Positions 25,601 to 63,875 of a stretch of DNA of 64,000 nucleotides are shown here, piece after piece. Under the pieces are notes generated by a model. The model saw nothing but the letters and a program-made list of their open reading frames with translations. It was not told the DNA's origin and did no database searches. The stretch comes from Escherichia phage vB_EcoP_DE5, in sequence record MW741821.1; one strand, written 5' to 3'. A program made the position numbers and the translations under genes. How positions within the stretch are numbered: position 1 is the first letter of the stretch; each line of letters starts with the position of its first letter.

Positions 25601-25608
25601 ATTGATTC

Positions 25609-25920
25609 CTATTTAAGTTTGAGGCTAATGTTAAGGTGCATACATGCTCTGTTCTGTACAGCAGCATAACTTCTACCGAGCATGTCAGCCATTCTCTGAA
25701 TAGACATGAACCCAGCATTACGGATAAGGAACTGGTCCTCTTCTTCAGACCATTTAACTCGGATTGAAGCTCTTGATATGCCGAATTTAGTGCAAGCTGT
25801 GTTAACAGCATTCTCCGTTACATTCATAATCTGAGCTACTTCTTGAACCGAGTACTCTTTGATTAGTCTCCGAAGATTTTCAATCTGCATCGGAGTCCAT
25901 ATAGTTCTTCGTGCTTTCAT
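25609..25920 (-). CDS. DNA-binding protein with two tandem Myb/SANT-like helix-turn-helix repeats
   Basis: 103 aa; two W-[TS]-x-E-E-D...L repeats (RRTIWTPMQIENLRRL... and VKWSEEEDQFLIRNAG...). Confidence 0.5.
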   Translation of the reverse strand: MKARRTIWTPMQIENLRRLIKEYSVQEVAQIMNVTENAVNTACTKFGISRASIRVKWSEEEDQFLIRNAGFMSIQRMADMLGRSYAAVQNRACMHLNISLKLK

Positions 25921-26415
25921 ACATCCTCCAATTAATTGTTAAAACTATCAGGGGAGAACACTAGCTCTGGGCCACGCTGTAGATATTGGCCTACCTTCCA
26001 CAGCTAATCAGCTAATATACTCCCCTAATAGTTTATGAATAGGGGGAGGGGACGAATCCTCCCTTATCCTATTAGTTAATATTGCATGTAAGATCTAACA
26101 ATCGGTTGCCTTTGTAGGAATAAGCGTAAAGCCAATCCAGCACTAAACTCCCGCCCCCTTAGTGGGCTGGGTTATTAAAGGGTAACGCCCTTATGGGCTA
26201 GTTACATGAATGTTAGTTTGATAGGAGATCTGAAGTCCTATCTCAAAGGACTCTCGTAAGAATCCTTCACGATATTACTTATTCATCTCTCGTCGGCTAT
26301 CTCTCCAAGCCAACCAAGTGTAGGTTTTCAGTTCTTCAAAGTCTTCTGGAGAGAATAGATACTCTTTGAAGGTGTTCCCAAACCACTCTAAAAATTCTTC
26401 AGTCATAAGATTCTC

Positions 26416-30779: not shown

Positions 30780-30978
30780 ATTATTTACCCTTTATCAGAG
30801 ATTAAAAGTAATATTATTTAAGTAAGTTATATTTAGTAAACTTATTTTCTAAGAAATTTTCAAAGGGTCTATATACAGAGCATTACCCATAGTCCCAGAA
30901 TACTGCCATCTTTTTCAATAAATTTACTAAGTGGTTGGTTTATAAAGGAATTTAGTTTGTCAAATCTGGCACTAGTGA

Positions 30979-46772: not shown

Positions 46773-46781
46773 TAATGTATA
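46773..46781 (+). promoter_or_regulatory. putative phage-specific promoter element TAATGTATA
   Basis: Exact 9-mer about 42 nt upstream of ATG at 46815; same 9-mer at 63844-63852. Confidence 0.45.
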
Positions 46782-46814
46782 TTCTTTGTCTACATATAAC
46801 AAGGAGGACAACCT

Positions 46815-47567
46815 ATGGCAATGCCAGATGTTCAATACCCCATCAATACCTATGGGTGGCTAAAGAAGGCCGTGGCCCTCTGGGCAGATAGGGACGATGA
46901 CGAATTTGTTAATCAAATTCCAAACTTTATTAACTTTGCAGAGAAAGAGATTTATCGTAACTTACGTATCCCTCCTCTGGAAAAAGAAGTGTATTTAGAT
47001 ATTAAAGATGGAGTAGCTTACATTCCTCCTGATTACTTAGAAGCTCAATGGATGATGAGAGCCAAAGATGGTACAATCTTCCAAGTAACATCTCCTGAAG
47101 AGATTAGCTATCGTAGACAGCATGGAACAATTAACCCATCTCATTGGAATAACCAACCTGTTAATTTTGCTCGTTTCGGTAGTCGTTTCATTTTCTACCC
47201 TAGCATTGAAGCAGATACTCCTGTTTATCCTGATGATGGAAGTCCTTTGATTCCAGCAGAAAACTCAGTAATTCTTAGCTATTATGCAGATCCACCGGAA
47301 TTCCATGAAGATACAGATACTAGTACTATTCTCACTATCGCACCAGAGCTTCTTCTGTATTTCACCCTACGTCATGCTTGTCTGTTTGTTCAAGATGATA
47401 ATGGAGTTCAGAAATGGTCCGCATTAGGAAAAGCTATCCTTGATGAAATGGTAGAGCAGAATAAGAAACAAGAGTACTCAGGTTCACCTATCGCAATTCC
47501 GAATAACATGACTCGACTTCAGAGCAGCTTGCCTGATATTTATGGTATTCGTACTTCTCGTGTATAA
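46815..47567 (+). CDS. virion structural protein (function unassigned)
   Basis: 250 aa between capsid and tail-fibre genes. Confidence 0.45.
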   Translation: MAMPDVQYPINTYGWLKKAVALWADRDDDEFVNQIPNFINFAEKEIYRNLRIPPLEKEVYLDIKDGVAYIPPDYLEAQWMMRAKDGTIFQVTSPEEISYRRQHGTINPSHWNNQPVNFARFGSRFIFYPSIEADTPVYPDDGSPLIPAENSVILSYYADPPEFHEDTDTSTILTIAPELLLYFTLRHACLFVQDDNGVQKWSALGKAILDEMVEQNKKQEYSGSPIAIPNNMTRLQSSLPDIYGIRTSRV

Positions 47568-47576
47568 GGAGATAAT

Positions 47577-50354
47577 ATGATCGTTTATAATAACCAAGCA
47601 CCTGATGCAGTGAATAACGTTGGGCAGTTTGGTGCTACTGAAGGCTCTATCGGAGCTTACAAGCAAGCGGCAGAATATGCAGCTGACTCTAAATATTGGG
47701 CACTGTTAGCAGAATCTAAGTTTGGTACAATTGATGATTTAATTGCTGAAGTAGAACGTCTGTATCAACAGGGTGTTCTGATGAAGCAAGACATTGAAGA
47801 TCTTAAGCAGGACTTTAAAGATCAAGATGCTCGTCTGATGAGCTTGATTGCTCAGACTAATGCGGCAGTATCTGATGCAAATAACGCAGTCGCCCTGATT
47901 AACCAAAAACTCATTGAAGTCCAGAAGCAGCTTGATGTTCTGTTAGGAATGTCTGTTGATGTAACAACCCTCCCTCCGGGAACTCCGGCTACTGGTTCTT
48001 TTAATCCTAACACTGGTGTAATCTCTTTAGGTATTCCAGAAGGTGATCCCGGAAAAGATGGTTCTGTTAAGGATTTGGATACAGCACCTACTGGTGTTCC
48101 AGAGCTAGGTGATTTAGGTTTCTATGTTGACAAAGATGACAACACCGTCCACAAAACTACTCTAGATAACATTGCTAACTTAATCCCATCTGTTCGTTCT
48201 GTATCTATTAACGGAGGTCCAGCTCTTGATGGAGAGGTTGCTCTAACACTTAACAAAGAGACGGTAGGTTTAGGAAATGTTCTGAACGTTGCTCAGTACA
48301 GTCGTCAAGAGATTAATGACAAATTTGACAAAACTACCAAGACATACCAATCAAAAGCAGAAGCTGATGCTGATGCTCAGTATCGTCAAGTAGGTGAGAA
48401 AGTTTTAGTTTGGGAAGCTACTAAGTATGAATTCTATACTGTTGCTGCTAACAAGACATTAACTCCTGTTAAAACTGAAGGTAGAATCCTTACTGTTAAC
48501 TCTCGTTCTCCAGACTCAAGTGGTAACATTGATATCACGATTCCAACAGGAAACCCGTCTCTGTATCTTGGTGAGATGGTGATGTTCCCTTATGACCCAG
48601 CTAAGAATATCTCATATCCGGGGGTTCTCCCTGCTGATGGTCGTCTGGTATCAAAAGAGTCTGCTCTAGATTTAGGTCCATCACTTGTTAGTGGTCAGCT
48701 TCCTGTGGTCTCTGAAACAGAGTGGCAGGCTGGTGCTCGTCAGTATTTCTCTTGGGGTAAGTTAGCAGATGGAGTCACTGATGCAGATTCTACTAACTTT
48801 ATAAGTATCCGACTCCCTGACTGGACTGGTGGTGAAGCTATCAGATCTCCTGATTCAGATAAGGATGCTAATTACAAGGGTCGTGTTCAATCTCAGATTC
48901 CTTACATTGTAACCGTAAACGGAAAAGCTCCTGATGATGCTAATGGTAACGTAGTTCTCACAGCTGCTAATGTTGGTGCAGCAGCGTCCGGAGCAAATTC
49001 AGATATCACCTCACTCAGTGGACTAACTACTCCCTTATCTGTCACTCAGGGTGGTACAGGTGTTACTGATATAGGAGGTTTGCGTAGAGCGGCATTGGTT
49101 CAGGGTGTAGAATGTAATGACCAAACAGGACCAGATAGCTACAACAGTTTCCACTCCCCTAATACTCAATATGCATGGAAGATAACCAACTCTGGTGTGG
49201 CTCAAACAATTAAAGTTTCCGATGGGTCTGCTGTTCCTATACCTATAGGTTCTGGGGGTACAGGGGCTACCTCTGCTTACGATGCTCGTATTTCTTTAGG
49301 TTTGGGCAGATTCCGGGAAGAGGGTGTGGAAACTAAAACCTACTCCCCTGATTTTGGAACGTACATATACATCAATGATACATCTTGGGGTTGCTATAAC
49401 ACGACGAGAGGTACAGTACCTTTAGGAACTGTTCAAGGGGGTACTGGAGCAATAACAGAAGCTGGGGCTCGTGTTAATCTGAAAGTAGATAAACTTGTTC
49501 AGAGTTCAACTGACACTAAACTTTTAGATGGTTCAGGAGATCACACATTCTTTATAGCTGGGGATGATTGGGGGTATTTCAATAATTCAGATTCTTCCAG
49601 AATTGCCCTACCGGTAATAAGTGGTGGTACAGGAGGGAAGACTCCAGAAGAAGGCTGTGAAAAGTTAGCGGCAATGCATTATCAGCATAGTCAATCAACA
49701 TACTATGGTAGTGATGCTTTGCCGACCGGTATTGGGTTCTACAGTCAAGACACTTCACCATTCCCTGGCGGTAACGGAGGCCCTTACTCATATGCAGAAA
49801 TAATGACTATTGCTGAAGGTGGTCGTGGAGGTAACTGGTCTCAAATAGGTTTCTCTACTATTACGAACCAAGCCCCTCGTTATAGACAAAGGACTAGTGA
49901 CCCTTCTTTAATCACAAACTGGCGTGACTTCTTAATAAGAGATTTGAACACTACCGTAGATGTTAATGGTTTTGTTAAGATTGCATCACCTATAGTCAAA
50001 CTAAAATCTGATGGTTCTTCTGAAGTTAATGACCAAGCCCAAGGAGTAACAACCGAAAGGCTAGATGTTGGTGTTTACAAGATATCTGGGACTTTAGGGT
50101 TTAACTCGGATGCATCTTGGGGTGGTATCGAAGGTGGTTTTTCTATTCCACAAAACTCCAATGGTTTACCTCTTCTTTGGGTTGACTTTGAAGTTGATGA
50201 AGAAGGTGATATTACTCTGAAAACTTACCATCGGACTCATGAGGGAGTTCCTTCTTTTGCTAGTAATGTAATAGAGGGTGTGGCAGATGGGGAACCTATC
50301 GATATCCCTGTTGGAAGATGGATTGATCTTCGTGTTGAAATGCCTTCTAAATGA
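47577..50354 (+). CDS. tail fibre/tail protein with repeated GGTG motifs
   Basis: 925 aa; repeated QGGTGV/SGGTGA/QGGTGA/SGGTGG segments typical of fibre shafts. Confidence 0.55.
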   Translation: MIVYNNQAPDAVNNVGQFGATEGSIGAYKQAAEYAADSKYWALLAESKFGTIDDLIAEVERLYQQGVLMKQDIEDLKQDFKDQDARLMSLIAQTNAAVSDANNAVALINQKLIEVQKQLDVLLGMSVDVTTLPPGTPATGSFNPNTGVISLGIPEGDPGKDGSVKDLDTAPTGVPELGDLGFYVDKDDNTVHKTTLDNIANLIPSVRSVSINGGPALDGEVALTLNKETVGLGNVLNVAQYSRQEINDKFDKTTKTYQSKAEADADAQYRQVGEKVLVWEATKYEFYTVAANKTLTPVKTEGRILTVNSRSPDSSGNIDITIPTGNPSLYLGEMVMFPYDPAKNISYPGVLPADGRLVSKESALDLGPSLVSGQLPVVSETEWQAGARQYFSWGKLADGVTDADSTNFISIRLPDWTGGEAIRSPDSDKDANYKGRVQSQIPYIVTVNGKAPDDANGNVVLTAANVGAAASGANSDITSLSGLTTPLSVTQGGTGVTDIGGLRRAALVQGVECNDQTGPDSYNSFHSPNTQYAWKITNSGVAQTIKVSDGSAVPIPIGSGGTGATSAYDARISLGLGRFREEGVETKTYSPDFGTYIYINDTSWGCYNTTRGTVPLGTVQGGTGAITEAGARVNLKVDKLVQSSTDTKLLDGSGDHTFFIAGDDWGYFNNSDSSRIALPVISGGTGGKTPEEGCEKLAAMHYQHSQSTYYGSDALPTGIGFYSQDTSPFPGGNGGPYSYAEIMTIAEGGRGGNWSQIGFSTITNQAPRYRQRTSDPSLITNWRDFLIRDLNTTVDVNGFVKIASPIVKLKSDGSSEVNDQAQGVTTERLDVGVYKISGTLGFNSDASWGGIEGGFSIPQNSNGLPLLWVDFEVDEEGDITLKTYHRTHEGVPSFASNVIEGVADGEPIDIPVGRWIDLRVEMPSK

Positions 50355-50394
50355 AACAAGAATGCTCCCTTCGGGGAGCTTTAAGGAGAAATAA

Positions 50395-52587
50395 ATGTCT
50401 AGAGAATTAATGCCCAAATCTGGCATAATGATGCCTCACGTAGTTGTGACCAGAGATGCGGCTGTTGTTGGTGTTTCTACAGTAGATGGACAGGCCGGGG
50501 CTATTGACCTCACTGGAAAGTATTTACAGAAAACCGATGCGGCTGCTACATATCAGACTAAAACAGAGGGAGCATCTAAAGACTACGTATTAGATTCAAT
50601 TCAACCTCTTATGTCTAGTGCTCTGTTCCGAGAAGATCCTTGGGTTGTGAACGACACACCTTTCCGCTCTACTGGAGCTAACGGTGTAGAGTCAGTGGAT
50701 ATGATGAAGGTCACTCCTGATAACTCAATTAAGATTGGTAGTTATGCTTCTTCCGTTCAAGGTGTAGAGATTCACTCTGCTGGTCGTCTTCAGGTTGTTG
50801 ACCAGAATGATTCTGGAGTAGAAACTAAGTATCCAGTTTATTCTAAACGCTACCGCCCAGAGATTGAAGATTTACCTTTTGCTGCGATTGGTTCTTATGT
50901 TAAAGACTCCAAAGGTCGTACTGTTGGGGTTACTCGTACAGGGATTAACTCTGATATCAAACAGCTCACGCAGAAGGTGACTTTCACTCAACCAGTTACT
51001 GTTCCTGATGCAGTTGGAGACTATGATGCAGTTACTTTGAGACAGCTTCGTAATAGTGGTGGTGGTTCTGGTGGTCCTGGTGGTCCTACAATGAGTGGCA
51101 TTTCTAACTTTGGGATTGGGGATTTTCATTTACGTGATAGTCGTGCTTTCATCCCAGCTTTTGAGGTGGTGTCTGATGGTCAACTCCTTGAGCGTGCTGC
51201 CTATCCTGACTTATGGGCGTACGCTCAACTTCTTACACCCATCTCTGATTCAGAGTGGCTTGCTAATGTAGAAAATAGGGGTAAATATTCTACAGGTGAT
51301 GGTTCTACGACCTTCCGTGTCCCAGACCGAAATGGTGTTCAGAGTGGGTCTGTTCCGGGACTGTTTGGTCGCGGTGACGGTGGGGATAGTGCTCTAAATG
51401 GGATAGTGCGTAGCAACGCCGCGCCGAACATTACTGGTGCTCTGGGTGCATCCATGACTACCCTGTACGATGCTCCAGATACAACAGGTACGGGTGCAAT
51501 AGTTCCAGCCCCTATAGTTATAACCGAATATAAATTAGATAGTACGGGTACTGCAAGACTAAACTACAGGCTCAACCTTAATATTGATGCCAGCCTATCC
51601 AATGCGGCATACGGTCGTGACGGCACCGCAGAGGTCCGACCCAATGCTTTCACCGGGGTCTGGACTATTCGTGCTCATGGTGGATTTGTTGCTGCTAATA
51701 CTTCTTGGTCTGTTATCAATAGTGACACCGCCCGGCCTTCGAATGGAACGAAAGTTTCCAGTGGGTCGGTTGTCTCTGAGTATAGAATCGGTTCAGAGGT
51801 GGAAGCTTCTACTACCCTCAAAACTGATGCCTACATCAACGGAGCTTACTATGGAATCATTGACGTCTACAATAAAACTAAAGGAGTTACCAAGCAGTTA
51901 GCTTTCGACGATTCTGGTACACTGAATTCTGATAGGTATGTTGCTAGATTTGGCACTTTGATGTCTTGGAGTGAAACAGGAGCTAGGAAAGGAACATTCT
52001 CTATGGATAACCAAGGGATAGGGTCTAACTACTCATTCAACTCTATACTAAGTGCATCACAAGCATCCAATGGAGGGTACAAGACTACAACTCACGTTGG
52101 TATGATTCACAATGACGCCGGAACTTTTGCCGACTCTTGCTGGCACGTTGCAGGGGATGAAAATAACCAATATGGTTGTCGTCTAACCCTTCGACCAAAC
52201 AGGAATGAGATTTTCTATTATACTTGGCAACCCAGCTCTACTGGAACATACACTCTTGCTCTGAATCCTGTGTCAGATGAAAGATTAAAACATGATATCC
52301 AAGATGTATCTCCTGAGAAAGCTATCAAGGCTATCAAAGGGTTGGATTTCAAATCATTTGTGTATAACAACGATGAACAAGGAAGAACTCGTCGTGGTAT
52401 TATCGCACAGCAAGCAGAAAAGGTAGAACCTCTTTATGTTAAGACTCGTAGGTTCCATGACAACGATGGTGTAGAGCAAGAACAGAAAGAGCTAGACTCA
52501 GCTCCTATGCTCCTTGATACTATGCAGGTTGTTCAAGACCTTCTGAAACGTATTGAAGTTCTGGAATCGAAGTTAGCAGAGAAGTAA
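50395..52587 (+). CDS. tail fibre/spike with C-terminal intramolecular chaperone (peptidase S74-like) domain
   Basis: 730 aa; C-terminus DERLKHDIQDV...KAIKGLDFKSF...RRGIIAQQAEKVEPLYV. Confidence 0.65.
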   Translation: MSRELMPKSGIMMPHVVVTRDAAVVGVSTVDGQAGAIDLTGKYLQKTDAAATYQTKTEGASKDYVLDSIQPLMSSALFREDPWVVNDTPFRSTGANGVESVDMMKVTPDNSIKIGSYASSVQGVEIHSAGRLQVVDQNDSGVETKYPVYSKRYRPEIEDLPFAAIGSYVKDSKGRTVGVTRTGINSDIKQLTQKVTFTQPVTVPDAVGDYDAVTLRQLRNSGGGSGGPGGPTMSGISNFGIGDFHLRDSRAFIPAFEVVSDGQLLERAAYPDLWAYAQLLTPISDSEWLANVENRGKYSTGDGSTTFRVPDRNGVQSGSVPGLFGRGDGGDSALNGIVRSNAAPNITGALGASMTTLYDAPDTTGTGAIVPAPIVITEYKLDSTGTARLNYRLNLNIDASLSNAAYGRDGTAEVRPNAFTGVWTIRAHGGFVAANTSWSVINSDTARPSNGTKVSSGSVVSEYRIGSEVEASTTLKTDAYINGAYYGIIDVYNKTKGVTKQLAFDDSGTLNSDRYVARFGTLMSWSETGARKGTFSMDNQGIGSNYSFNSILSASQASNGGYKTTTHVGMIHNDAGTFADSCWHVAGDENNQYGCRLTLRPNRNEIFYYTWQPSSTGTYTLALNPVSDERLKHDIQDVSPEKAIKAIKGLDFKSFVYNNDEQGRTRRGIIAQQAEKVEPLYVKTRRFHDNDGVEQEQKELDSAPMLLDTMQVVQDLLKRIEVLESKLAEK

Positions 52588-52656
52588 GATAAGCCCCTTC
52601 GGGGGCTTTAGTAGTAAGTACCCTTAGTAAGTAATGAAACTAATATATCCCAAGAG

Positions 52657-52668
52657 GTTAATATATAG
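52657..52668 (+). promoter_or_regulatory. TAATGTATA-like element (TTAATATATAGG)
   Basis: One-mismatch variant immediately upstream of 52680 ORF. Confidence 0.3.
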
Positions 52669-52679
52669 GAGACACTCAA

Positions 52680-52898
52680 ATGAAAATGATGAAACAAGCT
52701 GCATATGGTTTAATATGTTTAGGCGCAGGTGTTGTGGTATCCACCGCAGTTCCTGTAGGCGCAGTTCATCCATTAGTAACTGTCCCTGCTCCAGTAGAGA
52801 AGCTCAGCTCTCAATGTAAGCAGAGAACAATTCAAAATAACTTAGTTGTTATTTGCCCTGATGCTGAATCTAACGCTCTGAGAAAGATACTACCTTAA
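52680..52898 (+). CDS. small membrane protein, lysis-associated candidate (holin/spanin-like)
   Basis: 72 aa with N-terminal hydrophobic segment, directly upstream of lysozyme. Confidence 0.4.
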   Translation: MKMMKQAAYGLICLGAGVVVSTAVPVGAVHPLVTVPAPVEKLSSQCKQRTIQNNLVVICPDAESNALRKILP

Positions 52899-52926
52899 TT
52901 TAAAGGGACTACAAAGGAGGTTAGAA

Positions 52927-53418
52927 ATGGATAACGTCGCATTGCCACCTGTACAACTAAACTTAAGCCCAGCTGGAATGGAATTCATCATGAAGCATGA
53001 GGGTATGAGAACAAAGGCTTATAAAGATTCCGCAGGTATCTGGACTATATGTGTAGGGGCTACGCGCGATATGAATGGTTATCCGGTTAGACAAGGATTA
53101 ACGTATTCTATAGAGGATTGTCTAGCTCTGCTAGATAGAGACACACAAGACTCTGTTCGTGCTACTCAGAAGAACATAAAGGTTCCTTTACTAGTTCATG
53201 AGTTTGATGCCCTCACTTCTTTCAACTTCAATGTTGGCAGTGGGGCTTTGAGCACATCTAAGTTAAGGAAGGTAATCAATGGAGATGTTAAGGGGGATGT
53301 TTATTCCGAATTTCTTCGTTGGGATAAAATAACGGTCAAGGGAGAGAAGCAGAGAAGTCAGGGTCTTCATAATAGAAGAGTTGCAGAAGCTAATCTTTAC
53401 ACCGAAGGTAAATATTAA
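52927..53418 (+). CDS. lysozyme (GH24, T4-lysozyme-like), probable endolysin
   Basis: 163 aa; FIMKHEGMRTKAYKDSAGIWTICVGAT matches the GH24 catalytic block. Confidence 0.75.
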   Translation: MDNVALPPVQLNLSPAGMEFIMKHEGMRTKAYKDSAGIWTICVGATRDMNGYPVRQGLTYSIEDCLALLDRDTQDSVRATQKNIKVPLLVHEFDALTSFNFNVGSGALSTSKLRKVINGDVKGDVYSEFLRWDKITVKGEKQRSQGLHNRRVAEANLYTEGKY

Positions 53419-53430
53419 TGGAGGTGCCTT

Positions 53431-54234
53431 TTGGCTATCGAAACTAATGCGGTAGTTATTACCGACTTAAACCCGCTCTATCCTAGAGACAGGGATTACA
53501 TCTACGAAGGGGCGGCTCAAATCCGCCTCATTAAACAAACGTTACAGAACACATTCCCCAATGTCACAGAACCAGTTGATATTGATTCTGACACTTTTAA
53601 GATTATGTCAGAGAAGCTTAAGTTTACTGGTGATGCAATGGATGTTGGCGGTCTAATGATTAAGAACGTCACTCCGGGAACTGGTGACAAAGATGTTGTT
53701 ACTAAAGGTCAGATGGAAGCGTTCATGAAGAACTGGATGGAGAATAAAGTATTCCGTATCGGCGCTTACTATATCACTGAAGAAGATATTAACCCCGGTG
53801 ATTCCATCTCCTTAGGGTTTGGCTCTTGGGCTAAAGTGACTGGTGTTATCATGGGTACTGGTGTAGTAAACCCTGATGGTTCTGTCCCTAATGCTCAGAG
53901 AGTTGAGTTCCAAGCAGGTGGTACTGGTGGTCGTGTCTTCAATACTATTCGAACTGAGAACGTACCTTTGATGACAGTTAATGGCTCCAGCTTCTCTCTA
54001 TCCAGTAATACTCACAGTCACAACATGGTATTTGGTCGTGGAGATGCTAGTGGTCATAACAGCTCGCCAAACTGGTATAGTCCGGGTGGTGGATACAGTC
54101 AGAGAACTGATAATGATACTCACACTCATACAATCTCTGGTAGTGTAAGTCTTGGTCGTGATGATATCTCTCGTCAACCTATTAACACTTTGCCACCATT
54201 CAGAGCAGCTCACATTTGGAGACGTATTAGCTAA
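53431..54234 (+). CDS. virion structural protein
   Basis: 267 aa in structural operon. Confidence 0.45.
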   Translation: MAIETNAVVITDLNPLYPRDRDYIYEGAAQIRLIKQTLQNTFPNVTEPVDIDSDTFKIMSEKLKFTGDAMDVGGLMIKNVTPGTGDKDVVTKGQMEAFMKNWMENKVFRIGAYYITEEDINPGDSISLGFGSWAKVTGVIMGTGVVNPDGSVPNAQRVEFQAGGTGGRVFNTIRTENVPLMTVNGSSFSLSSNTHSHNMVFGRGDASGHNSSPNWYSPGGGYSQRTDNDTHTHTISGSVSLGRDDISRQPINTLPPFRAAHIWRRIS

Positions 54235-54243
54235 GGAGGAATT

Positions 54244-57200: not shown

Positions 57201-57261
57201 TAACAGTAATGCTGCTATCAATGGTTTAACGATAGAGTTTGCTGTTGGCGGGCGGAGATAA
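54244..57261 (+). CDS. large structural protein with tandem Ig-like (Big_2) domains
   Basis: 1005 aa; several repeats of the ...TxTATxxPxxATNxxxxWxSSNxxIATV... pattern. Confidence 0.55.
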   Translation: MALYPIKSLGAVGVIADQAPTDLAPNAFTNAINARFVEQRVFKTGGNAPLSYVDEDKDLTPLSFVSMPFDYYSAGNSFLVVGTNKKLYKLTDESLTDISRKVATVTKKASASIKIYPVVSQIVPKESTISMNFNQTKNLEVSLLPADANNTDLIWEVSNSAYGSITVDPSDSKLATLTSFEKEGNLVVTISTANESVVAQIAVNIIDGDSGIFLSQDTVTIRKGGTTTLTAVTGKTPVTWSSSNASIVSVTPNANSLTAVITANGEGNVTITADNGTKTASCEIVSIPQIDSISLSQSDVTVSRGSQYILTATLSPANAPNQNITWTSSNPNIATVSGTSTQGTINALLAGFTEITATTEEGNRVAVCTVRVDLAGRTMRTSAMAFAAPVSESVETQEEEVVTPPESEETVYFAEPTSGIDTSGMYEGNNFYDYSNVNDIEGFARASLLATPLSSVTLDVVSASLDVGEEIVITATASPEGDYSYQWSVDKTGYVSTTSVTGKSIKLVALRKGEINVTCTVSQMTQKDYDAFDDYPWYHAVISNCAVATTHYETPQVKEFESEYFVDLPGWGEQTVVDNDGNPSVKKFNWKCERVRSFNNRLFALNMREANASGVTTNYPLRLRWSNFANENKAPTLWDDFAYDRVVSSDLASNIVGQTQALENGYAGYIDLADSNGSLIDILPLKDYLFVYTEFETYIGSPTNNTYQPLMFKKLFNDSGILAPECVVEVEGSHFVVTQNDVILHNGATKKSIASNRVKNMLINEVCLVNPLATRVHLHQDKKEVWVLYVGPGEPKESFACTKAAVWNYEFDTWSFRTIPYAQCIGLVDPPVLERGPIWSDFQEITWDDPSIKELVWRKDATNFRQRVTIVGSFLKGFYQVDVGALDYFYDRLNDVVIEKPLEMRLERTGIDFDNVTNEWNQKHINRFRPQTTGSGTYIFEAGGSQFSNEYGHPHTSKTYTIGVDRHVSVRLNHPYLFYNVIDNDVNSNAAINGLTIEFAVGGRR

Positions 57262-57267
57262 CAACAA

Positions 57268-57294
57268 GGGGCTTCGTGCCCCTTTTATTGTTTT
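57268..57294 (+). terminator. Rho-independent terminator
   Basis: Hairpin GGGGC-UUCGU-GCCCC followed by UUUUAUUGUUUU. Confidence 0.6.
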
Positions 57295-57304
57295 GGAGGA
57301 ACTT

Positions 57305-58273
57305 ATGGGTGCAGGTGGTTTTCGTAAGAACACTGGTCGCAACAACACCACACTCCCGTACAACGTTGGGTTTCTCAATAATGTACAGGACACAGAAACA
57401 TATAACGTAGCAGTGTATGATGAATTACAAAAAGTTAGCACAGCTACTAACCAAATGTTCCAAGCTATAGATGAAATTCACGAAGAGATTGATGTTCGTA
57501 TTAAAGCTCTTAATGCAATGAATCTTCAATTTGATGAGCTTGAGAATAGAATTACTACAGAGATAGAAACAGCTATTGCAGATATCCAAACCCAGATGGG
57601 GAACCTGTCCACTGAGGACATTTGGGATAATTCTGTTCAACCCCCTGTGAAGCTAGAAAGCACTGTATCTGGTTTTAAGACCAGCATCGAAGGTAACACA
57701 ACTAAAATTCAGACAGTAGAAGGTATTGTTAACGATCAAGGTCAAGAGATTGCTCTTGTTCAGACAGAACTGCAAAATATCAACGGAAGCCTTTCTCAGT
57801 ATATGAAACTCTCTGAGTATGAAGCTACGTGGGGTGTTAACTCTACAGTCAACGGAAGATATGCTGGGGTCAAGTTAACTAACAACGGAACAAACAGTCA
57901 ATTCCAAGTAACAGCTAACAAATTTATTGTTGGTGATGGCAGCTCTGGGAATACCCCCTTCGTATTTGAGGGTGGGCGAGCTAGGATGGAATTCGCTGAC
58001 ATAAAGAACGTCAACATCACAACTGCTCAGATTGCCAACGCTAGGATCCAATGGGCACAGATTGATAACGTATCTATCTCCAATGCTCAGATTCAGAACT
58101 TATCAGCGGATAAAATCACTGCTGGTTCTATGTGGGGTTCTAACTGGAGACTTACTGTTGGTGGTGATTTTGTTATGGGTGGTACAGGTGGTTCTCAGTT
58201 GTGGATGAATGGTAATAGAATAGATTTTTATGATGGGAGTGGAACTCTTCGCATAAGAATAGGGAGTTGGTAA
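57305..58273 (+). CDS. tail fibre-like protein
   Basis: Track ORF trimmed to MGAGGF Met with GGAGGAA SD; ITTAQIANARIQWAQIDNVSISNAQIQNLSADKITAG repeats. Confidence 0.5.
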   Translation: MGAGGFRKNTGRNNTTLPYNVGFLNNVQDTETYNVAVYDELQKVSTATNQMFQAIDEIHEEIDVRIKALNAMNLQFDELENRITTEIETAIADIQTQMGNLSTEDIWDNSVQPPVKLESTVSGFKTSIEGNTTKIQTVEGIVNDQGQEIALVQTELQNINGSLSQYMKLSEYEATWGVNSTVNGRYAGVKLTNNGTNSQFQVTANKFIVGDGSSGNTPFVFEGGRARMEFADIKNVNITTAQIANARIQWAQIDNVSISNAQIQNLSADKITAGSMWGSNWRLTVGGDFVMGGTGGSQLWMNGNRIDFYDGSGTLRIRIGSW

Positions 58274-58274
58274 C

Positions 58275-59309
58275 ATGGCATATGGAATATGGACACGCCC
58301 GGTTGGTCCGGGTCCAGCGGCACCTGCTGATATTTACATCGATAGTGGTAGCACATTCCCTCAACTCAGAAATAGAGTCAGTGGGAATTTCTCTTTTAGT
58401 GGAAATACCTGTGACTTGCCTATAAGTGGTTGGGATGGTAGTGGTCAGATAGTTGTAGTTCCAACAGGGTCTGTTGTTTGGGAGAGATACATACCTCCTA
58501 ACGTAACGTCTGATGTGTATTGGATAACGGATATATCTGTTATTAATAACTCAACCTTCAGAGTTACTATGGACTATAATGTAAACGGTTGGGTATTTGA
58601 TATGGCTTTTAATGTGTATCAAATATGGCCTAGAGCTAACAGGAATTATGGAATCACATTCTCCAACTCTGCTGACTATTTCTCAATATCTGATTCTGGG
58701 GTTGTTGGTCAATGTATTTGGGCTTGGGAGGGTGACATAAATGGTTCTCTTCAAATACCAGATATTGGTGGTTTTGATATGAGCCGAGCAACTGTCTACG
58801 CGAATTGGAGTAACGGTGGAGCAGGGCTGCTATACAATCCATCCAATAGGGTTGTTTATGTGTACCAGAACAGGTCTCATGATAATGGTAACACAAACCA
58901 AACAGGATACATTGGTGGTGTTAGAATTGCCGTCTTCTGTGATGGTTCTGGAGTACCAACCCACAATGGTGGTTTAAATATCTTCTCTCCAAATGGGTCT
59001 CAGTGTGTATTTTCTACATATAGAACCCCTTTTAGTGTTGAGGGATTTATGCCTATGAGTGGCGGTAACACATCTCTGGCCTATCCAATGATACCACTAT
59101 CTTACGGAGCAGGAGCAATAAGAGGCAAGGCTAGTGGTTGGTATTTTCAACACACAAGATCTCACATGATGAATGGCTCTTCTTTCGGTACAGGTTTCGG
59201 AAGGATGATTTACTCTTGGAGTAGTCAATATGATTTAGGAGGGGGTGGTGCCCTCGGGTTAAGTATTCCAATATTAGATGCTAGAAAGATATTCAGGAGT
59301 ATACAATAA
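58275..59309 (+). CDS. virion structural protein
   Basis: 344 aa in structural operon. Confidence 0.45.
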   Translation: MAYGIWTRPVGPGPAAPADIYIDSGSTFPQLRNRVSGNFSFSGNTCDLPISGWDGSGQIVVVPTGSVVWERYIPPNVTSDVYWITDISVINNSTFRVTMDYNVNGWVFDMAFNVYQIWPRANRNYGITFSNSADYFSISDSGVVGQCIWAWEGDINGSLQIPDIGGFDMSRATVYANWSNGGAGLLYNPSNRVVYVYQNRSHDNGNTNQTGYIGGVRIAVFCDGSGVPTHNGGLNIFSPNGSQCVFSTYRTPFSVEGFMPMSGGNTSLAYPMIPLSYGAGAIRGKASGWYFQHTRSHMMNGSSFGTGFGRMIYSWSSQYDLGGGGALGLSIPILDARKIFRSIQ

Positions 59310-59318
59310 GGAGATATT

Positions 59319-60101
59319 ATGGCAATCAGAATGGGTATCGAAGAACTAGACCCAATGGTACAGCAAGCTTCAAAGAAGTATGGGATTCCTGCTGCTTTGA
59401 TTCATGCTGTCATCCAAAGAGAGTCCAGTGGTCGTCCTACAGTGGCCTCTGGAACTGGTCCTGTAGGTTTAATGCAGATCAGTAAAGGGTTGGCTAAAGA
59501 TTACGGTTACAAACTAGAAGATAGACTTGACCCAGCAAAGAATATTGATATGGGCGCTCGTTACATAAGAGATAACTTAAAAGCTTTTAATGGTGATGTT
59601 AAGAAAGCAATGGTTGGTTATTCAGAAGGTATCGGTGGAGCTAAGCAAATGTTCGCTGGTAAAAAGGGGTTTACTCCACAAGCTCTTGACTCCATGAACA
59701 ATAAACACTTTCTTCCTTTCTATGGTGATGCAGCTTCTCAGATTGCTAACCCTGTTGGAGCTTTGCAAGCTGTTCAACCAGTCAATCAGTTTAGTCCTGA
59801 CTTGTTAGATAGAGAGAAGGCCGCACAAGCTCCAACTCAGGCAGAGATTGCTGCTTCTAAGACAGGTGCTTTAGGTGGAAATCCAGTAGAGTTTTACTCT
59901 GATGAAGTGCAGGAAGGCGAAAATCAGAAACCTCAACAGAACTTTGGTAATGCAGTATTAGGGGTAGCTGCTATGCTTGCTGGTAAACCTCCCACTTCTC
60001 AAACAGTTCAGAGGGCAAGTGCACCACATGCAGCAGGTTCTCAGTACAGTCCACAAACACAAGCAGTGCTCAGACGTCTGGCTAGCATTGGTGTAAAGTA
60101 A
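59319..60101 (+). CDS. lytic transglycosylase (SLT domain), probably virion-associated
   Basis: 260 aa; IQRESSGRP (catalytic E-S), GLMQI motifs. Confidence 0.7.
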   Translation: MAIRMGIEELDPMVQQASKKYGIPAALIHAVIQRESSGRPTVASGTGPVGLMQISKGLAKDYGYKLEDRLDPAKNIDMGARYIRDNLKAFNGDVKKAMVGYSEGIGGAKQMFAGKKGFTPQALDSMNNKHFLPFYGDAASQIANPVGALQAVQPVNQFSPDLLDREKAAQAPTQAEIAASKTGALGGNPVEFYSDEVQEGENQKPQQNFGNAVLGVAAMLAGKPPTSQTVQRASAPHAAGSQYSPQTQAVLRRLASIGVK

Positions 60102-60120
60102 TAATCTTTAAGGAGGACTT

Positions 60121-61173
60121 ATGTCTTTATTTGGAAAATCAGCTTCTAGCAAAACCACAGTGGCCCCTTCCTCTCAGGTTGATGCCCTGCTGAAGCAGAT
60201 TGTTGCTAATGCTCAGAATATGCAGAACAACGATCCGGGATTCATCTCCCAACAACTGGCTGGGTTTAATGGCAACCAACAGGGTGCTCTGAACAACTTA
60301 GCAGCTTCTACTACTCAGAAGCAATTGGCTGATATGTACACGCCTCGTACACAGCAAGGGTTGGACCAATTAAACTCTCTTGCACAGCAGTATCAGAATA
60401 TTGTCAATGGTGGTGGTCTAACTGCTGATGGTGTTAATAACTTTAGTAAAGGATTGAATAACTCAGCTCTTGCTCAAGCGACTAGTAAGGCAGCTTCCAA
60501 TGTATCCCTCGGAAATGGTTCTGATTCAGGCTCTCTCCGTAGAGCTGCTGCTCAAGGTGCTGCTCTGAACAGTGCTAATACAAACTTAGCTCGTACTATC
60601 AGTGGCAAGAATATGGGAATCAGTGCTCTTCAACAAGACCAAAACTTCCAGAGGGGCTTACTTGGTGCTCAGTCAGGATTGGCTGGACAGAATCTCAATC
60701 TTGGTGCTCAAGGTGTTCAGGCAACTCAACAAGCTATCCAGAATCAACTCATGGCTGGTAATCTACAACAGCAACAAGCCCAAGCTCAAGCTGATATTAA
60801 TTGGCAGAACGCTATTGGCTCTCAACAGTATGGGTGGAATCAGCTTAACAACCAACTTAATGTATTAAATAGTGTAAGCCCAATGGCTGGGTACACGATT
60901 AAGAATGCTGCTCCGGGGGTTAATACTGGACAACAGCTCCTAGGTGCTGGTATCACTGGATTAGGTATTGCAGGTCGTATGGGTGCTTTCTCTCCTAATC
61001 AACAGACTCAGAATGCTTGGAGTTCCTATAACAACTCAGGTGGGCAATCTGGAATGGCTGGTCCTATGATTGGTGGTTCTAATCTTTCTCAACAGAAAGG
61101 TCAGTCTAACTGGTTATCCACAGCAGGTAGTAATATCTTAGGTGGTGTCTTAGGGGCATTTGGAGCAAACTAA
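60121..61173 (+). CDS. Gln/Asn/Gly-rich internal virion protein (paralog of 61186-62154)
   Basis: 350 aa; shared N-terminal F.GNQ..ALNNLA.S and Gly-rich hydrophobic C-terminus. Confidence 0.5.
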   Translation: MSLFGKSASSKTTVAPSSQVDALLKQIVANAQNMQNNDPGFISQQLAGFNGNQQGALNNLAASTTQKQLADMYTPRTQQGLDQLNSLAQQYQNIVNGGGLTADGVNNFSKGLNNSALAQATSKAASNVSLGNGSDSGSLRRAAAQGAALNSANTNLARTISGKNMGISALQQDQNFQRGLLGAQSGLAGQNLNLGAQGVQATQQAIQNQLMAGNLQQQQAQAQADINWQNAIGSQQYGWNQLNNQLNVLNSVSPMAGYTIKNAAPGVNTGQQLLGAGITGLGIAGRMGAFSPNQQTQNAWSSYNNSGGQSGMAGPMIGGSNLSQQKGQSNWLSTAGSNILGGVLGAFGAN

Positions 61174-61185
61174 AGGAGATTTGAT

Positions 61186-62154
61186 ATGGGACTTTTCGGA
61201 GGCGGGGGTAGTAAAACTACTTCCCAAATGATTCGCCCTGAATACATTCAACAGTATATTGACCAGCTTAACCAACAGATTGGTAATACTAGTTCAGGGG
61301 ATTATGTTTATCGTGACAATGTAGGGTTTAATAACAATCAGACAGAGGCACTTAACAACCTAGCACAATCTGGCGCTCTAGGTACTCTCTCACAGCAGTA
61401 TATGGATGCAGCAGGTCAAGGCTTGGGTTATCTAGATAATGCCTATAAAGGTTATCAGAGCCTCTCTGGACAAGGTGGGATTACTGGAGAGCAGATTGGT
61501 GCTCTCGCTGGTCAACTGTATGATGATGACGCTGTGCAAGCAGCCATTACAGCTAATAATGAACAGGTTCAACAGAACTTGGCACGTAATGCTCTTCCTC
61601 AGTTAGCTCAACAGTTTGCTGGTCAACAAGGTTCAGGTGCTCGTATGGCTAAGTCTTTTGCCCAAGGTGATGCTCTGAATCAGATGCAAGGCCAAGCAAC
61701 AGATATTACCAATAGTGCCTATAACTCGGCTATTAGCCAAGCTGAAAGCATCCTCTCTGGTAATAGACAGAATCAGGCAGCTGCTCTCTCTGGTCTTTCT
61801 AATATTGGTTCTAACCTTTCTAACCTAGGTCAGCAGGGTGCTAATTTGTCTCAACAGCAAATAATGAATCAATGGAATGCAGGGTTGCAGCAACAACAGC
61901 AACAACAGAATGAATATGATAATGCCTACCAGAATGCTCAGAACGCAGCTAATTGGGGATGGCAAGATATCAATAACCAACTCGGTGCAGCAGGTGTACT
62001 TAACGGTGCTCTCGGACAAACTACAACTACTAAAACATCTGGTGGCAAAGGTGGTTTCCTTGGTGGAGCTATGAGTGGTGCAGCAGCTGGCTCTTCCTTT
62101 GGACCTTGGGGTGCATTAGCTGGGGGTGTAATCGGTGGGTTGGCTAGTACTTAA
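61186..62154 (+). CDS. Gln/Asn/Gly-rich internal virion protein (paralog of 60121-61173)
   Basis: 322 aa; same architecture. Confidence 0.5.
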   Translation: MGLFGGGGSKTTSQMIRPEYIQQYIDQLNQQIGNTSSGDYVYRDNVGFNNNQTEALNNLAQSGALGTLSQQYMDAAGQGLGYLDNAYKGYQSLSGQGGITGEQIGALAGQLYDDDAVQAAITANNEQVQQNLARNALPQLAQQFAGQQGSGARMAKSFAQGDALNQMQGQATDITNSAYNSAISQAESILSGNRQNQAAALSGLSNIGSNLSNLGQQGANLSQQQIMNQWNAGLQQQQQQQNEYDNAYQNAQNAANWGWQDINNQLGAAGVLNGALGQTTTTKTSGGKGGFLGGAMSGAAAGSSFGPWGALAGGVIGGLAST

Positions 62155-62167
62155 TTAGGAGATAAAT

Positions 62168-63823
62168 ATGCAACAGACAACTTACGCTCAGGTCAGAAGT
62201 CGTGACCCGAGAAATACTTTCTATGGTGTTAATCCGGGAGCGGCTTCGGCCTCTCCTTATATGGCTAGACCAACTCAGACAGCAGATATTTCTATGTATC
62301 AACGTCCTGCTGTACCTTCATCTCTTGCGGGTCTTGTCTCTCAGGCAGAAGAAGATCAGAATGCTATGGTTAATCCGGGATTCCAGCAACGTCTTATGGA
62401 ACAGCAGAATCAAGGGACTCCTACCAGTCTTCAGGGTATTGATATTGGAGCACCGGCCCCTGTAGCGTCTAACCCTAACCTATCCACTGATCAAGGTTTA
62501 CAGGATGCTGGGCTTATGCCTAGTGACCCTCTTCCGGTAACACCTCCTACTAAACCGTTAGAAGCTGGTCCTATGGAGTTTACTCCTTCTCAGGTGGAAC
62601 AGGCACAAGGTGTGATTAATACTCTTGCTCAAGGACAAGATACTGGTGATGGAATGGCTGCTGCTACTCGTGCTAAAGATCAGGAACGTGTTAACAATGA
62701 TATCTTGCAAGTTGCTAAAGCTAAAGACCCTTCAGAAGCTTGGAACAAATTACAGAAAGAACCGTTCTATCAGAACTCTAGTTTCTACACAGGTTTGATG
62801 GGTGTAGGTCTTTCCATTATGTCAGGTAAGTCTCCTATTGAAGCTTTCCAGATTGGTCAGGGAATGGCTAATCAAGATGAGACTAAGAAGCAACTGGAAG
62901 CTAACCGTGATGCTCTGATTGAACAAGGCTTCTCTCAAGACTCGATTGCAGCTGCTATTGCTAACGGAGACCCATCTCTACTGAAGATGAGAGCTGTAGA
63001 CCCTGCTCAGAAAGAAGCGTTGTATGCTGCTCGTGAAGAACGACAAAATGCTGAATGGGATAGACGTCAACAGATTCAAGAGCAAACTATGCGTGAGCGT
63101 GCTGATGAAACTCGTCGTGCCGCTGAAGAAAGAGCTAACATGAACTTTGAACGTCAGAAAGAGTTGATTGGTTATCGTGATAAGGTTAAGGCTGAACGTG
63201 CTGAACAAGCTGCTCAGAGTTTTAACTTTAACCCGAAAGAAGTTCGTCTTGCTCAGAATACAGCTGAAGGTACGGTTGCTAAGCAGTGGGCAGAGAAAGG
63301 TGGCCTGTTTAACCAGTCTAACAAAGACTTGGATTTGGCTGATAAGGCTGTTAAGGATAAAGACTATCAGACAGCTCGTTCTGCTTACATGCAGGCTATC
63401 ATGAACTCCGCAAGGGCTGAAATCGGTGCTACTCGTTCTCTTACCGAAGAAGACTTGGGGCACTTTGCAGAAGACCCATCAATCTTCATTCGTGTTGGCA
63501 ACAAGTTTGCACTGAAATCTGGATGGCGTCCTACTGATTCTGCTCTTGCTTATGCTCGTAAGCAAGCTAACGTTGGTCACACCTCTGCAATGAAAGGTGT
63601 TGCTGATGCTAAGAGAGCTACGATTGAAGCTTACATCGGTTCTGGTATGGATAAGAAGAGAGCTACTGCATTGGTTAACCGTGCAATCCCTTCTGGTGGT
63701 TTCTATGACCCTCTAGGTGTTTTCTCTGAACAAGCAGAAGAAGCAGTTGGTGGTGCAGCAACCAATCCTAAGCTCAATGGTGCTTTATCAGCTGTCGAAG
63801 ACACTAGCTGGTTTACTCAATAA
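62168..63823 (+). CDS. virion protein (function unassigned)
   Basis: 551 aa in structural operon. Confidence 0.5.
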   Translation: MQQTTYAQVRSRDPRNTFYGVNPGAASASPYMARPTQTADISMYQRPAVPSSLAGLVSQAEEDQNAMVNPGFQQRLMEQQNQGTPTSLQGIDIGAPAPVASNPNLSTDQGLQDAGLMPSDPLPVTPPTKPLEAGPMEFTPSQVEQAQGVINTLAQGQDTGDGMAAATRAKDQERVNNDILQVAKAKDPSEAWNKLQKEPFYQNSSFYTGLMGVGLSIMSGKSPIEAFQIGQGMANQDETKKQLEANRDALIEQGFSQDSIAAAIANGDPSLLKMRAVDPAQKEALYAAREERQNAEWDRRQQIQEQTMRERADETRRAAEERANMNFERQKELIGYRDKVKAERAEQAAQSFNFNPKEVRLAQNTAEGTVAKQWAEKGGLFNQSNKDLDLADKAVKDKDYQTARSAYMQAIMNSARAEIGATRSLTEEDLGHFAEDPSIFIRVGNKFALKSGWRPTDSALAYARKQANVGHTSAMKGVADAKRATIEAYIGSGMDKKRATALVNRAIPSGGFYDPLGVFSEQAEEAVGGAATNPKLNGALSAVEDTSWFTQ

Positions 63824-63830
63824 GACCTAA

Positions 63831-63875
63831 GTCCTGCCTTCTATAATGTATATAGGGGGTAGGACATTTTTATTT
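63831..63875 (+). terminator. terminator-like long-loop hairpin with U-tract
   Basis: Stem GUCCUGCC/GGUAGGAC with a 19-nt loop that contains TAATGTATA, followed by AUUUUUAUUU. Confidence 0.35.
63844..63852 (+). promoter_or_regulatory. putative phage-specific promoter element TAATGTATA
   Basis: Exact 9-mer about 39 nt upstream of ATG at 63891. Confidence 0.45.

Follow-up and report, generated by a model that had tools for sequence, protein, structure and literature searches.

The promoters read by the phage-encoded sigma factor gp36 of phiEco32 share the consensus tAATGTAtA, and six of them, P6, P13, P26, P40, P58 and P68, have been mapped (PMC8948821, PMC4331800, PMC12276001). Transcription starts 6-8 nucleotides (nt) downstream of this 9-mer (PMC8948821; 2012 work as summarised there). 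The open complex, which was solved by cryo-EM on P68, and mutagenesis tie individual bases to gp36 contacts, and a second phage protein, gp79, blocks the sigma-70 holoenzyme and activates the gp36 holoenzyme, with 4-fold activation of P26 in vitro (PMC12276001).

The DNA analysed here (a stretch of 64,000 nt, hereafter the window) contains a 9-mer of this kind, TAATGTATA, and the first-pass annotation suggested that it serves a phage sigma factor of the phiEco32 type. The literature cited above confirms that such a factor and element exist, and the window comes from a phiEco32 relative. We consider it nearly certain, from sequence and orthology, that in this phiEco32-like phage the element forms the -10-like core of the promoters for middle and late genes. 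The first-pass observation was thus partly confirmed and its interpretation supported, its errors being in detail only.

The window phage and its five promoter orthologues

Sequence comparison gave 92-97% identity of the window to known Kuravirus phages, and by this measure the window is a phiEco32-like Kuravirus. It is collinear with phiEco32 39160..77554 followed by 1..26170, the phiEco32 segment 26171-39159 having no counterpart, and about 13 kb of the genome lies outside the window. P40 and the sigma gene would fall in this outer part. In phiEco32 the gp36 gene (34166-34810) is within the segment that the window lacks, and tblastn with gp36 found no match in the window, in accordance with the first-pass remark that no sigma gene was seen there. 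In EK5, the closest relative, a 100% identical gp36 is encoded in the equivalent segment. Because no sigma gene is in the window, we infer the presence of gp36 in this phage from its relatives. The gene for a gp79 homologue of 82 aa is at 14449-14697 on the minus strand (tblastn, 100% identity to phiEco32 gp79 over 82 aa). IMG/VR contained only six relatives, and a metagenome scan gave 14 more. The "promoter" features annotated in SU7 were disregarded, since they are software predictions of sigma-70 type, many of them over ribosome-binding sites, and do not mark gp36 elements. No relevant Kuravirus transcriptome or 5′-end data were found in a search of the literature.

Five sites in the window are orthologous to phiEco32 1677, 9101, 26014, 42937(-) and 46862(-), with near-identical flanks. 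Their 9-mers are exactly the variants of Table S3 in PMC8948821, namely TAATGTAgA, three copies of TAATGTATA, and aAATGTATA; the sites are kept in SU7, a phage of another genus whose DNA is about 80% identical, and a purine is found at the predicted +1 in all of them.

Three are late promoters on the plus strand. P13 (46750..46781) consists of TAAGACC at 46750-46756, a 16-nt spacer and TAATGTATA at 46773-46781, and is identical to phiEco32 9078-9109; the predicted start at about 46788 gives a 27-nt leader before the ATG at 46815. Footprinting of P13 by conservation was uninformative because 11 further Kuravirus-like sequences hardly vary between about -42 and +25, where they show a few substitutions in the spacer and leader, while the terminator upstream of this block does vary. 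P26 (63821..63852) carries TAAGACC at 63821-63827, whose TAA doubles as the stop codon of gene 25, then a 16-nt spacer and TAATGTATA at 63844-63852; the predicted start is about 63859, the gene 26 ATG is at 63891, and the core is identical to phiEco32 25991-26022 and SU7 25913-25944. P6 (39301..39332), which the first-pass annotation had listed rightly as a variant upstream of 39344, is composed of TGGGAGG, a 16-nt spacer and TAATGTAGA at 39324-39332, the last ending 11 nt ahead of the ATG at 39344. Its heptamer is the 3′ arm of a terminator hairpin (39293-39308), and its predicted start, about 39339, leaves only 5 nt to the ATG and lies past the AGGAG ribosome-binding site. The stretch 39301-39332 is identical to phiEco32 1654-1685, a single hairpin-loop base differing in the flank, and P6 is conserved in relatives.

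The other two are middle promoters on the minus strand. P68 (8458..8489), also correctly picked out at first as a variant upstream of 8418, has TGGTAGT at 8483-8489, a 16-nt spacer and AAATGTATA at 8458-8466, which ends 39 nt ahead of the ATG at 8418; the predicted start is about 8451 and the sequence is identical to phiEco32 46862-46893(-). P58 (4087..4118) has AAGAAAG at 4112-4118, within the 3′ end of phoH, and TAATGTATA at 4087-4095, with a predicted start at about 4080 and the ATG at 4050. Its 9-mer and downstream sequence match phiEco32 42937(-), and its upstream region is unlike that of phiEco32 because gene 59 is absent from the window; this junction without gene 59 is the common one (63 records).

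The mechanism is established in phiEco32 and is carried over to the window phage by orthology. The E. coli RNA polymerase core would carry gp36, a phage sigma-like protein, whose N-terminal, sigma-2-like domain would read -14A, -13A, -12T and -11G, with DNA opening from -11; the consensus 9-mer would thus span -15 to -7, and RNA would start 6-8 nt past it. The C-terminal, sigma-4-like domain would contact the -35 region at -37 and -34. By displacing sigma-70 region 4 from the polymerase, gp79 would turn off host and early transcription, and by bracing the C-terminal domain of gp36 it would raise transcription from gp36 promoters 3- to 4-fold. Transcription of the window phage is accordingly expected, with gp36 encoded outside the window, to start at all five sites, P68 and P58 serving middle genes on the minus strand and P6, P13 and P26 the late structural genes on the plus strand.

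The sites might instead be host sigma-70 promoters, or be used by both sigma-70 and the phage sigma factor, a dual use proposed in the SU10 genome paper for the middle promoters and, downstream of P6, for CDSs 4-10 (PMC4281155). Weak 9/12 matches do lie over P6 (39300-39327, TTGGGA-16-GATAAT) and P68 (8501-8474, TTTACT-16-TATGAT). However, P13, P26 and P58 have no TTGACA-N16-18-TATAAT-like match, shuffled sequence contained more 9/12 matches for each region scanned, and the three strong sigma-70 promoters (11/12) are away from these sites, at the start of the early cluster. In addition, gp79 inhibits the sigma-70 holoenzyme and yet activates P26 and P68 (PMC12276001). We therefore regard a sigma-70 role at these sites as very unlikely.

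Placement of the 9-mer and the hairpin at P26

The two plus-strand copies of TAATGTATA at 46773-46781 and 63844-63852 were present as first described, and the window scan added a third, overlooked copy at 4087-4095 on the minus strand, which is that of P58. Three exact copies compare with 0.74 expected, and 2 of 100 shuffles reached three; one-mismatch copies were not enriched in the window (19 versus 20.8 expected). The raw count is therefore only marginally above chance, a weak result. A different picture was obtained from placement. The pattern [TA]AATGTA[TG]A has six matches in the window, five of which are wholly intergenic (binomial P = 8e-5, intergenic DNA being 10.7% of the window), and all five are co-oriented with a gene whose start codon is 11-39 nt downstream; the sixth, at 51264, is within the tail-fibre ORF. 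The signal above chance thus comes from where the motif lies, not from its number.

These numbers bear on the view that the copies are functionless, AT-rich 9-mers arising by chance in AT-rich leaders next to ribosome-binding sites. Besides the one-mismatch and exact counts, two of the variants first listed speak for this view, as both are mere ribosome-binding-site neighbourhoods. The one upstream of the holin gene at 52680, TTAATATATAGG at 52658-52669(+), has A in place of the essential -11G, lies over an AGGAG ribosome-binding site 12 nt ahead of the ATG, and in relatives gives way to AATACACATAGG, TTAAATAATAGG or AAAATGAAAGG. The one upstream of the capsid gene at 45131, TTAATAGTATAGG at 45106-45118(+), contains an inserted base, lacks the AATG[T/A]A core and a heptamer at -38 to -32, and sits over the ribosome-binding site. 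Both were rejected as promoter elements. As an account of the five sites, however, chance is extremely improbable: in addition to their intergenic, co-oriented placement, each corresponds to an orthologous promoter mapped by experiment, the sites are kept in another genus, and -34A and a purine at -37 recur in them at a constant distance.

The P26 element is enclosed in a hairpin (63831..63865, plus strand) of 15 bp with the loop AUGUA, followed by AUUUUUAUUU. The terminator scan and folding gave -22.8 kcal/mol (z = -5.3) for the RNA, and the SU7 orthologue gave -21.2 (z = -5.7) with different stem bases and the pairing kept. TAG directly follows the 9-mer at P26 and P68 alone, and at P26 it is part of the stem; the TAGG extension that had been attached to the element is thus not general. 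The hairpin looks like a terminator for RNA reading through from gene 25, and the late promoters lie at, or just past, terminator-like hairpins of the preceding unit; RNA initiated at P26 would be without the 5′ arm of the hairpin. That the element acts as a terminator or processing structure in RNA or DNA and not as a promoter can be given hardly any weight. In its favour, the P26 9-mer lies partly in the loop and partly in the stem of a strong and conserved hairpin with a U-run after it, and P6, P13 and the lysis-gene candidate described below directly follow hairpins. Against it, the 9-mer is outside any predicted hairpin at P13, P58 and P68, stays constant where hairpin sequences vary, and contains bases tied to gp36 contacts by published mutagenesis; the P26 hairpin is better read as a terminator overlapping the promoter.

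An upstream heptamer and two candidate promoters

A -35-like heptamer (T-R-R-N-A at -38 to -34) was found across the sites exactly 16 nt upstream of the 9-mers, in a poor version (AAGAAAG) at P58. The bases contacted by gp36, AATG at -14 to -11 and -34A, are present at 5/5 sites; position -37 is occupied by G at P68 and P6, and by A, likewise an N7-bearing purine, at P13, P26 and P58. In the register used, the -37G and -34A contacts at P68 are the G and A of TGGTA. When all seven paralogous sites were considered, -34A and the -37 purine were each kept in 7/7, in agreement with the published gp36 contacts. TAAGACC, which P13 and P26 share, was considered as a late-specific upstream element and downgraded, since the late P6 is without it; as a distant clade has TAGCACC in the same place, TAAGACC appears to be one form of the general heptamer.

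We tentatively propose, as a serious possibility, that gp36 promoters are bipartite (T-R-R-N-A-S-N at -38 to -32, N16, nAATG), that the 3′ half of the -10 element may be degenerate if the heptamer is strong, and that at least one promoter has gone unreported. The best heptamers under this model are TGGTAGT and TAGTAGT. The pattern T[AG]G.A[GC]T-N16-nAATG has four matches in the window versus 0.6 expected; a separate, relaxed bipartite pattern was fitted once the sites had been seen, and its 6/6 specificity is descriptive and not a test. One match, 43744-43771, is probably due to chance, being made up of the portal stop codon and the start codon of gene 9.

Another of the four matches is a candidate seventh promoter before the holin and lysis genes (P16cand, 52609..52640, plus strand), with TAGTAGT at 52609-52615, a 16-nt spacer and TAATGAAAC at 52632-52640. 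It directly follows a hairpin (52591-52608), has a predicted start at about 52647 ahead of the ATG at 52680, and retains 6/6 bases with described gp36 contacts. TAG[T/C/G/A]AGT-N16-TAATGAA was kept without change in 18 phages and contigs that differ from one another in the spacer, in the sequence downstream and even in the hairpin upstream. An ORF at 52634..52819, whose ATG is inside TAATGAAAC, was rejected as the cause of this conservation, as it runs for only 9 codons in SU7 and 4 codons in 1-6af before a stop. The candidate is absent from the six published promoters, and our literature search gave no indication of a promoter ahead of gene 16, Pavlova 2012 and Savalia 2008 being covered via PMC8948821, PMC4331800, PMC4281155 and PMC12276001.

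A weaker candidate (P116cand, 30877..30908, minus strand) is in the early-gene region. For the gene starting with the ATG at 30779, a site had been listed at first; we found no AATGTA upstream of it, and the one-mismatch match at 30674 is inside the ORF. The intergenic region upstream of this ORF contains instead a conserved TGGCAGT-N16-TAATGCTCTGTATATAG, with TGGCAGT at 30902-30908, a 16-nt spacer, TAATGCTCT at 30877-30885 and a conserved CTGTATATAGACC after it. TGG[C/T/A]AG[T/C]-N16-TAATG is kept in seven phages from three genera, among which a 1-nt indel follows TAATG, and the candidate is off consensus at -10 and -9.

If these candidates are true, the holin/endolysin cassette and genes 16-25 would be transcribed from TAGnAGT-N16-TAATGAA at 52609-52640, the late region would consist of four terminator-bounded units (P6, P13, P16 and P26), and TGGnAGT-N16-TAATG at 30877-30908(-) would possibly be a promoter inside the "early" gene block.

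Comparison with known systems

The core finding is already known and repeats work of 2012-2025, and the additions are modest. The window resembles phiEco32 in its identical 9-mers at orthologous positions, near-identical flanks, the same gp79 and the same genome layout, and differs from it in the -35 region of P58, the absence of gene 59, and in that P40 and the sigma gene would be beyond the window. Whereas the phiEco32 promoters were described as "single-element", a heptamer at -38 to -32 with a fixed 16-nt spacing was found here at all sites, a modest addition to the published descriptions consulted, and two extra conserved candidates with a degenerate -10 are proposed beside the six of phiEco32. 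The five promoters, their predicted starts and the early/middle/late layout should be transferable to the window phage with high confidence, and such annotation helps the choice of payload insertion sites in therapeutic Kuravirus phages. The heptamer, the lysis-cassette candidate and the terminator hairpin enclosing the P26 -10 element would refine the single-element picture, and could explain the expression of genes 16-25 and of gene 26 as separate units.

The same bipartite layout and spacing were found in four relatives from soil and plant metagenomes (L008 and L021-L023), whose gp13 is 51-55% identical. Upstream of the gp13 homologue and after a terminator, they carry TAGCAC[C/T]-N16-[T/C]AATGAATA, with the AATGAA variant as in P16cand; they differ in an extended -10 (AATGAATATAAACTAGAC) and are known from sequence alone.

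The late promoters of Salmonella phage 7-11, GTAAtg-N16-aCTA, depend on gp47 (PMC8948821). As here, a distant phage-encoded sigma factor serves late genes from similar promoter positions; one of these promoters precedes the block homologous to phi32_18/19, and another precedes the capsid gene. Unlike here, phage 7-11 is without gp79 and a middle class, and both the consensus and the sigma factor differ (15% identity). The gp36- and gp47-type motifs were mutually exclusive between subgroups in the published search (PMC8948821), and by inspection GTAAtg-N16-aCTA at the required spacing was absent from the flanks of our five sites and of P16cand.

The arrangement also resembles the T4 middle promoters (AsiA/MotA), an analogy drawn by the authors of PMC12276001, in that a small protein disables sigma-70 region 4 and a second protein supplies specificity. 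There is no sequence relationship between the two systems, and whereas T4 retains and remodels sigma-70, here the phage sigma factor would replace it.

Orthologues of the phiEco32 gp36 promoters

phiEco32's middle and late promoters are read by host RNA polymerase with the phage sigma gp36 and share the element tAATGTAtA, with transcription starting 6-8 nt downstream; six were mapped, before genes 6, 13, 26, 40, 58 and 68 (P6 to P68) (PMC8948821; PMC4331800; PMC4281155). Their 9-mer is TAATGTAgA at P6, TAATGTATA at P13, P26, P40 and P58, and aAATGTATA at P68 (PMC8948821, Table S3). Exactly these variants were found in the window at the orthologous positions, with flanks near-identical to those of phiEco32: P6 at 39324(+) (phiEco32 1677), P13 at 46773(+) (9101), P26 at 63844(+) (26014), P58 at 4087(-) (42937(-)) and P68 at 8458(-) (46862(-)); P40 lies outside the window. 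Since these five sites are orthologues of mapped gp36 promoters, the first-pass annotation, which proposed a promoter element of a phiEco32-type phage sigma factor, was right in its interpretation. SU7, of a different genus, retains orthologues of P6, P13, P26, P68 and also P40, while no P58 was found immediately upstream of its gene 58 homologue, a place occupied by an insertion of other sequence.

The window holds three exact copies of TAATGTATA (46773(+), 63844(+) and 4087(-)) against 0.74 expected, and at least three copies appeared in 2 of 100 shuffles; the first two copies had been noticed earlier and the third overlooked. One-mismatch matches number 19 versus 20.8 expected, so that close variants are uninformative on their own. 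The signal resides in placement: in the motif scan that had been suggested as a check, carried out over the window, 5 of 6 matches to [TA]AATGTA[TG]A were wholly intergenic (P = 8e-5; intergenic DNA is 10.7% of the window), and each of the five faces a start codon at a distance of 11-39 nt. The remaining match, at 51264, is within a tail-fibre ORF.

Other parts of the first-pass proposal did not hold. TAG follows the 9-mer only at P26 and P68, and therefore the suggested (TAGG) extension is not part of the element. The variant before 52680, TTAATATATAGG (52658-52669), has A at the -11G position, overlaps the ribosome-binding site (AGGAG) 12 nt before the ATG of the holin gene, and is replaced by unrelated sequence in relatives; that before 45131, TTAATAGTATAGG (45106-45118), has an extra base inserted, lacks the AATG core and an upstream partner, and also overlaps a ribosome-binding site.

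The upstream heptamer and candidate promoters

The five window promoters, phiEco32 P40 and a plus-strand phiEco32 site at 36681-36712 were aligned on the 9-mer (-15 to -7). A is present at -34 and a purine at -37 in 7/7 sites, and T at -38 in 6/7. The heptamer at -38 to -32 is TGGTAGT at P68 and the 36681-36712 site, TAGTACT at P40, TGGGAGG at P6, TAAGACC at P13 and P26, and AAGAAAG at P58 (TAGCAGA at phiEco32 P58), and its distance to the 9-mer is exactly 16 nt at every site. This register is independently validated because the published -37G and -34A of P68 are the G and A of TGGTA; both are contacted by the sigma-4-like C-terminal domain of gp36, and their mutation abolishes activity (PMC12276001). 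Papers from 2012-2022 termed phiEco32-type promoters single-element; the 2025 structure paper reports the contacts, and an upstream consensus was not found in the portion of its text available (PMC12276001).

The bipartite pattern T[AG]G.A[GC]T-N16-nAATG gave 4 window matches versus 0.6 expected: P68, a site before the lysis genes, 30881-30908(-), and the portal-stop/gene-9-start junction, the last of which is probably chance at a stop/start codon junction. The lysis-gene site, TAGTAGT-N16-TAATGAAAC at 52609-52640(+), immediately follows a hairpin (52591-52608) and lies 25 nt upstream of TTAATATATAGG. TAG[T/C/G/A]AGT-N16-TAATGAA is invariant in 18 phages and contigs, among which all four bases occur at heptamer position 4. 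In 1-6af and the relative L012, the spacer and downstream sequence are unrelated to those of the window; in XT18 and the relative L014, the spacer and upstream hairpin differ and the sequence after the 9-mer is close. All bases with described gp36 contacts are retained, and -10 is A, not T. An ORF starting from the ATG inside the element was considered as the cause of conservation and rejected, as that ORF is unconserved. In phage 7-11, a late promoter preceding the homologous block of genes has been verified (PMC8948821). We regard this site as a probable seventh promoter, an unproven candidate.

The region upstream of the minus-strand ORF 30779, also listed in the first-pass annotation, has no AATGTA, but TGG[C/T/A]AG[T/C]-N16-TAATG is present there and conserved across seven phages belonging to three genera, followed by conserved CTGTATATAGACC with a 1-nt indel between. 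Being off consensus at -10 and -9, surrounded by early genes and preceded by two strong terminators, it is a weak candidate promoter. In the same intergenic region (30780-30978), GTGCCA..TTGACAAACTAAATTyCyTTATAAA at 30945-30975(-) is strongly conserved in three genera and resembles TTGACA + TATAAA with a spacing of only ~13 nt.

Further sites were seen. Outside the window, the phiEco32 site at 36681-36712(+) has full TGGTAGT-N16-TAATGTATA. It is directed away from P40, opposite in strand to the middle genes around it, and has a conserved counterpart in SU7 (35761-35792); possibly this is a divergent or antisense gp36 promoter that has gone unreported. TGGAATC-N16-TAATGTATT at 60835-60866(+), inside gene 23 and coding WNQLNNQLNVLN, keeps AATGTAT unchanged in SU7 despite synonymous changes nearby, and may reflect either an internal promoter or a chance match. 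Four soil/plant metagenome relatives (L008, L021-L023; gp13 51-55% identical) carry, around 9930-9985, between a terminator and the gp13 homologue, TAGCAC[C/T]-N16-[T/C]AATGAATA (TAGCAC[C/T]-N16-[T/C]AATGAATATAAACTAGAC); a sister clade that is unstudied probably uses promoters of this type.

Genome layout, terminators and sigma-70 promoters

Megablast of window 44000-64000 matched 127 GenBank phage records, the best being Escherichia phages EK5, YW01, MN03, SU10 and phiEco32 (identity 92-97%, query coverage 85-97%). The whole window is collinear with phiEco32 39160..77554, then 1..26170, with early and middle genes on the minus strand (1-37.9 kb) and late genes on the plus strand (38.4-64 kb). 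The 193-bp terminal direct repeat, found at both phiEco32 record ends, is present once (~37710-37902), indicating a permuted or circularly assembled genome. The sole tRNA, tRNA-Arg(TCT) at 27469-27544(-), is typical of the group. Two tail-fibre genes (49060-52532(+)) show 80% identity or no match to phiEco32 between flanks 93-96% identical; a host-range module seems to have been exchanged here. Relatives regain homology to the window at several differing points before the holin gene; in XT18 that point is precisely the candidate -10 element. At its start the holin gene reads ATGAAAATG (Met-Lys-Met; 52680-52688(+)), a dual-start pattern frequent in holin/antiholin pairs.

P6 overlaps the 3' arm of a terminator hairpin (39293-39308), P13 is downstream of a terminator (46718-46741), and the lysis-gene candidate adjoins its hairpin. 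The P26 -10 element is within a 15-bp hairpin (63831-63865(+); loop AUGUA, -22.8 kcal/mol, z = -5.3) with the U-run AUUUUUAUUU directly 3', kept in SU7 with base changes that preserve pairing. It looks like a terminator for gene 25 read-through RNA overlapping the gene 26 promoter; the 5' arm would be missing from RNA initiated at P26.

From the P6 9-mer to the gene 6 ATG is 11 nt (39324-39346, +), as in phiEco32. A start 7 nt past the 9-mer (~39339) leaves a 5-nt leader, and the transcript would begin downstream of the AGGAG ribosome-binding site; with this predicted start gene 6 would be nearly leaderless on P6 RNA. At P58, the phoH stop codon falls in the spacer because phiEco32 gene 59 is absent (4096-4113, -); it is just downstream of the -35 heptamer, itself within the last phoH codons. 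The junction commonly takes this form (63 phage records), and the phiEco32 insertion is the rarer one.

Three near-consensus sigma-70 promoters (11/12; TTGACA-16/17-TATAGT or CATAAT) at 37273-37246, 35324-35296 and 34876-34848, all minus strand, agree with published early promoters located where the early gene cluster begins; two are in a long gene-free stretch (33934-35332).

gp36, gp79 and comparison with phiEco32

In agreement with the first-pass annotation, which saw no sigma gene in the window, tblastn with phiEco32 gp36 gave zero matches there. The phiEco32 gene (34166-34810) is within the segment 26171-39159, which the window does not cover, and the closest relative, EK5, has a 100% identical, unannotated copy at 14356-14997. 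The gene of the co-regulator gp79 is at 14449-14697(-), 100% identical.

That gp36 promoters carry this element is already published, and what is added here is modest. According to the structure paper, AATGTA occupies -14 to -9, the sigma-2-like N-terminal domain of gp36 recognises -14A, -13A, -12T and -11G, and opening of the transcription bubble begins at -11 (PMC12276001). At the window promoters this domain would read AATG at -14 to -11, with the DNA opened from -11, and the C-terminal domain would touch -37/-34. gp79 is clamp-bound and displaces sigma-70 region 4 by its N-terminus; when gp36 is present it braces the gp36 C-terminal domain instead, and P26 rises 4-fold and P68 3-fold (PMC12276001). 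In the present phage gp79 would displace region 4 and, with gp36 present, brace the gp36 C-terminal domain instead, boosting P26 and P68. This mechanism is established for phiEco32, and we infer it for vB_EcoP_DE5 by sequence identity.
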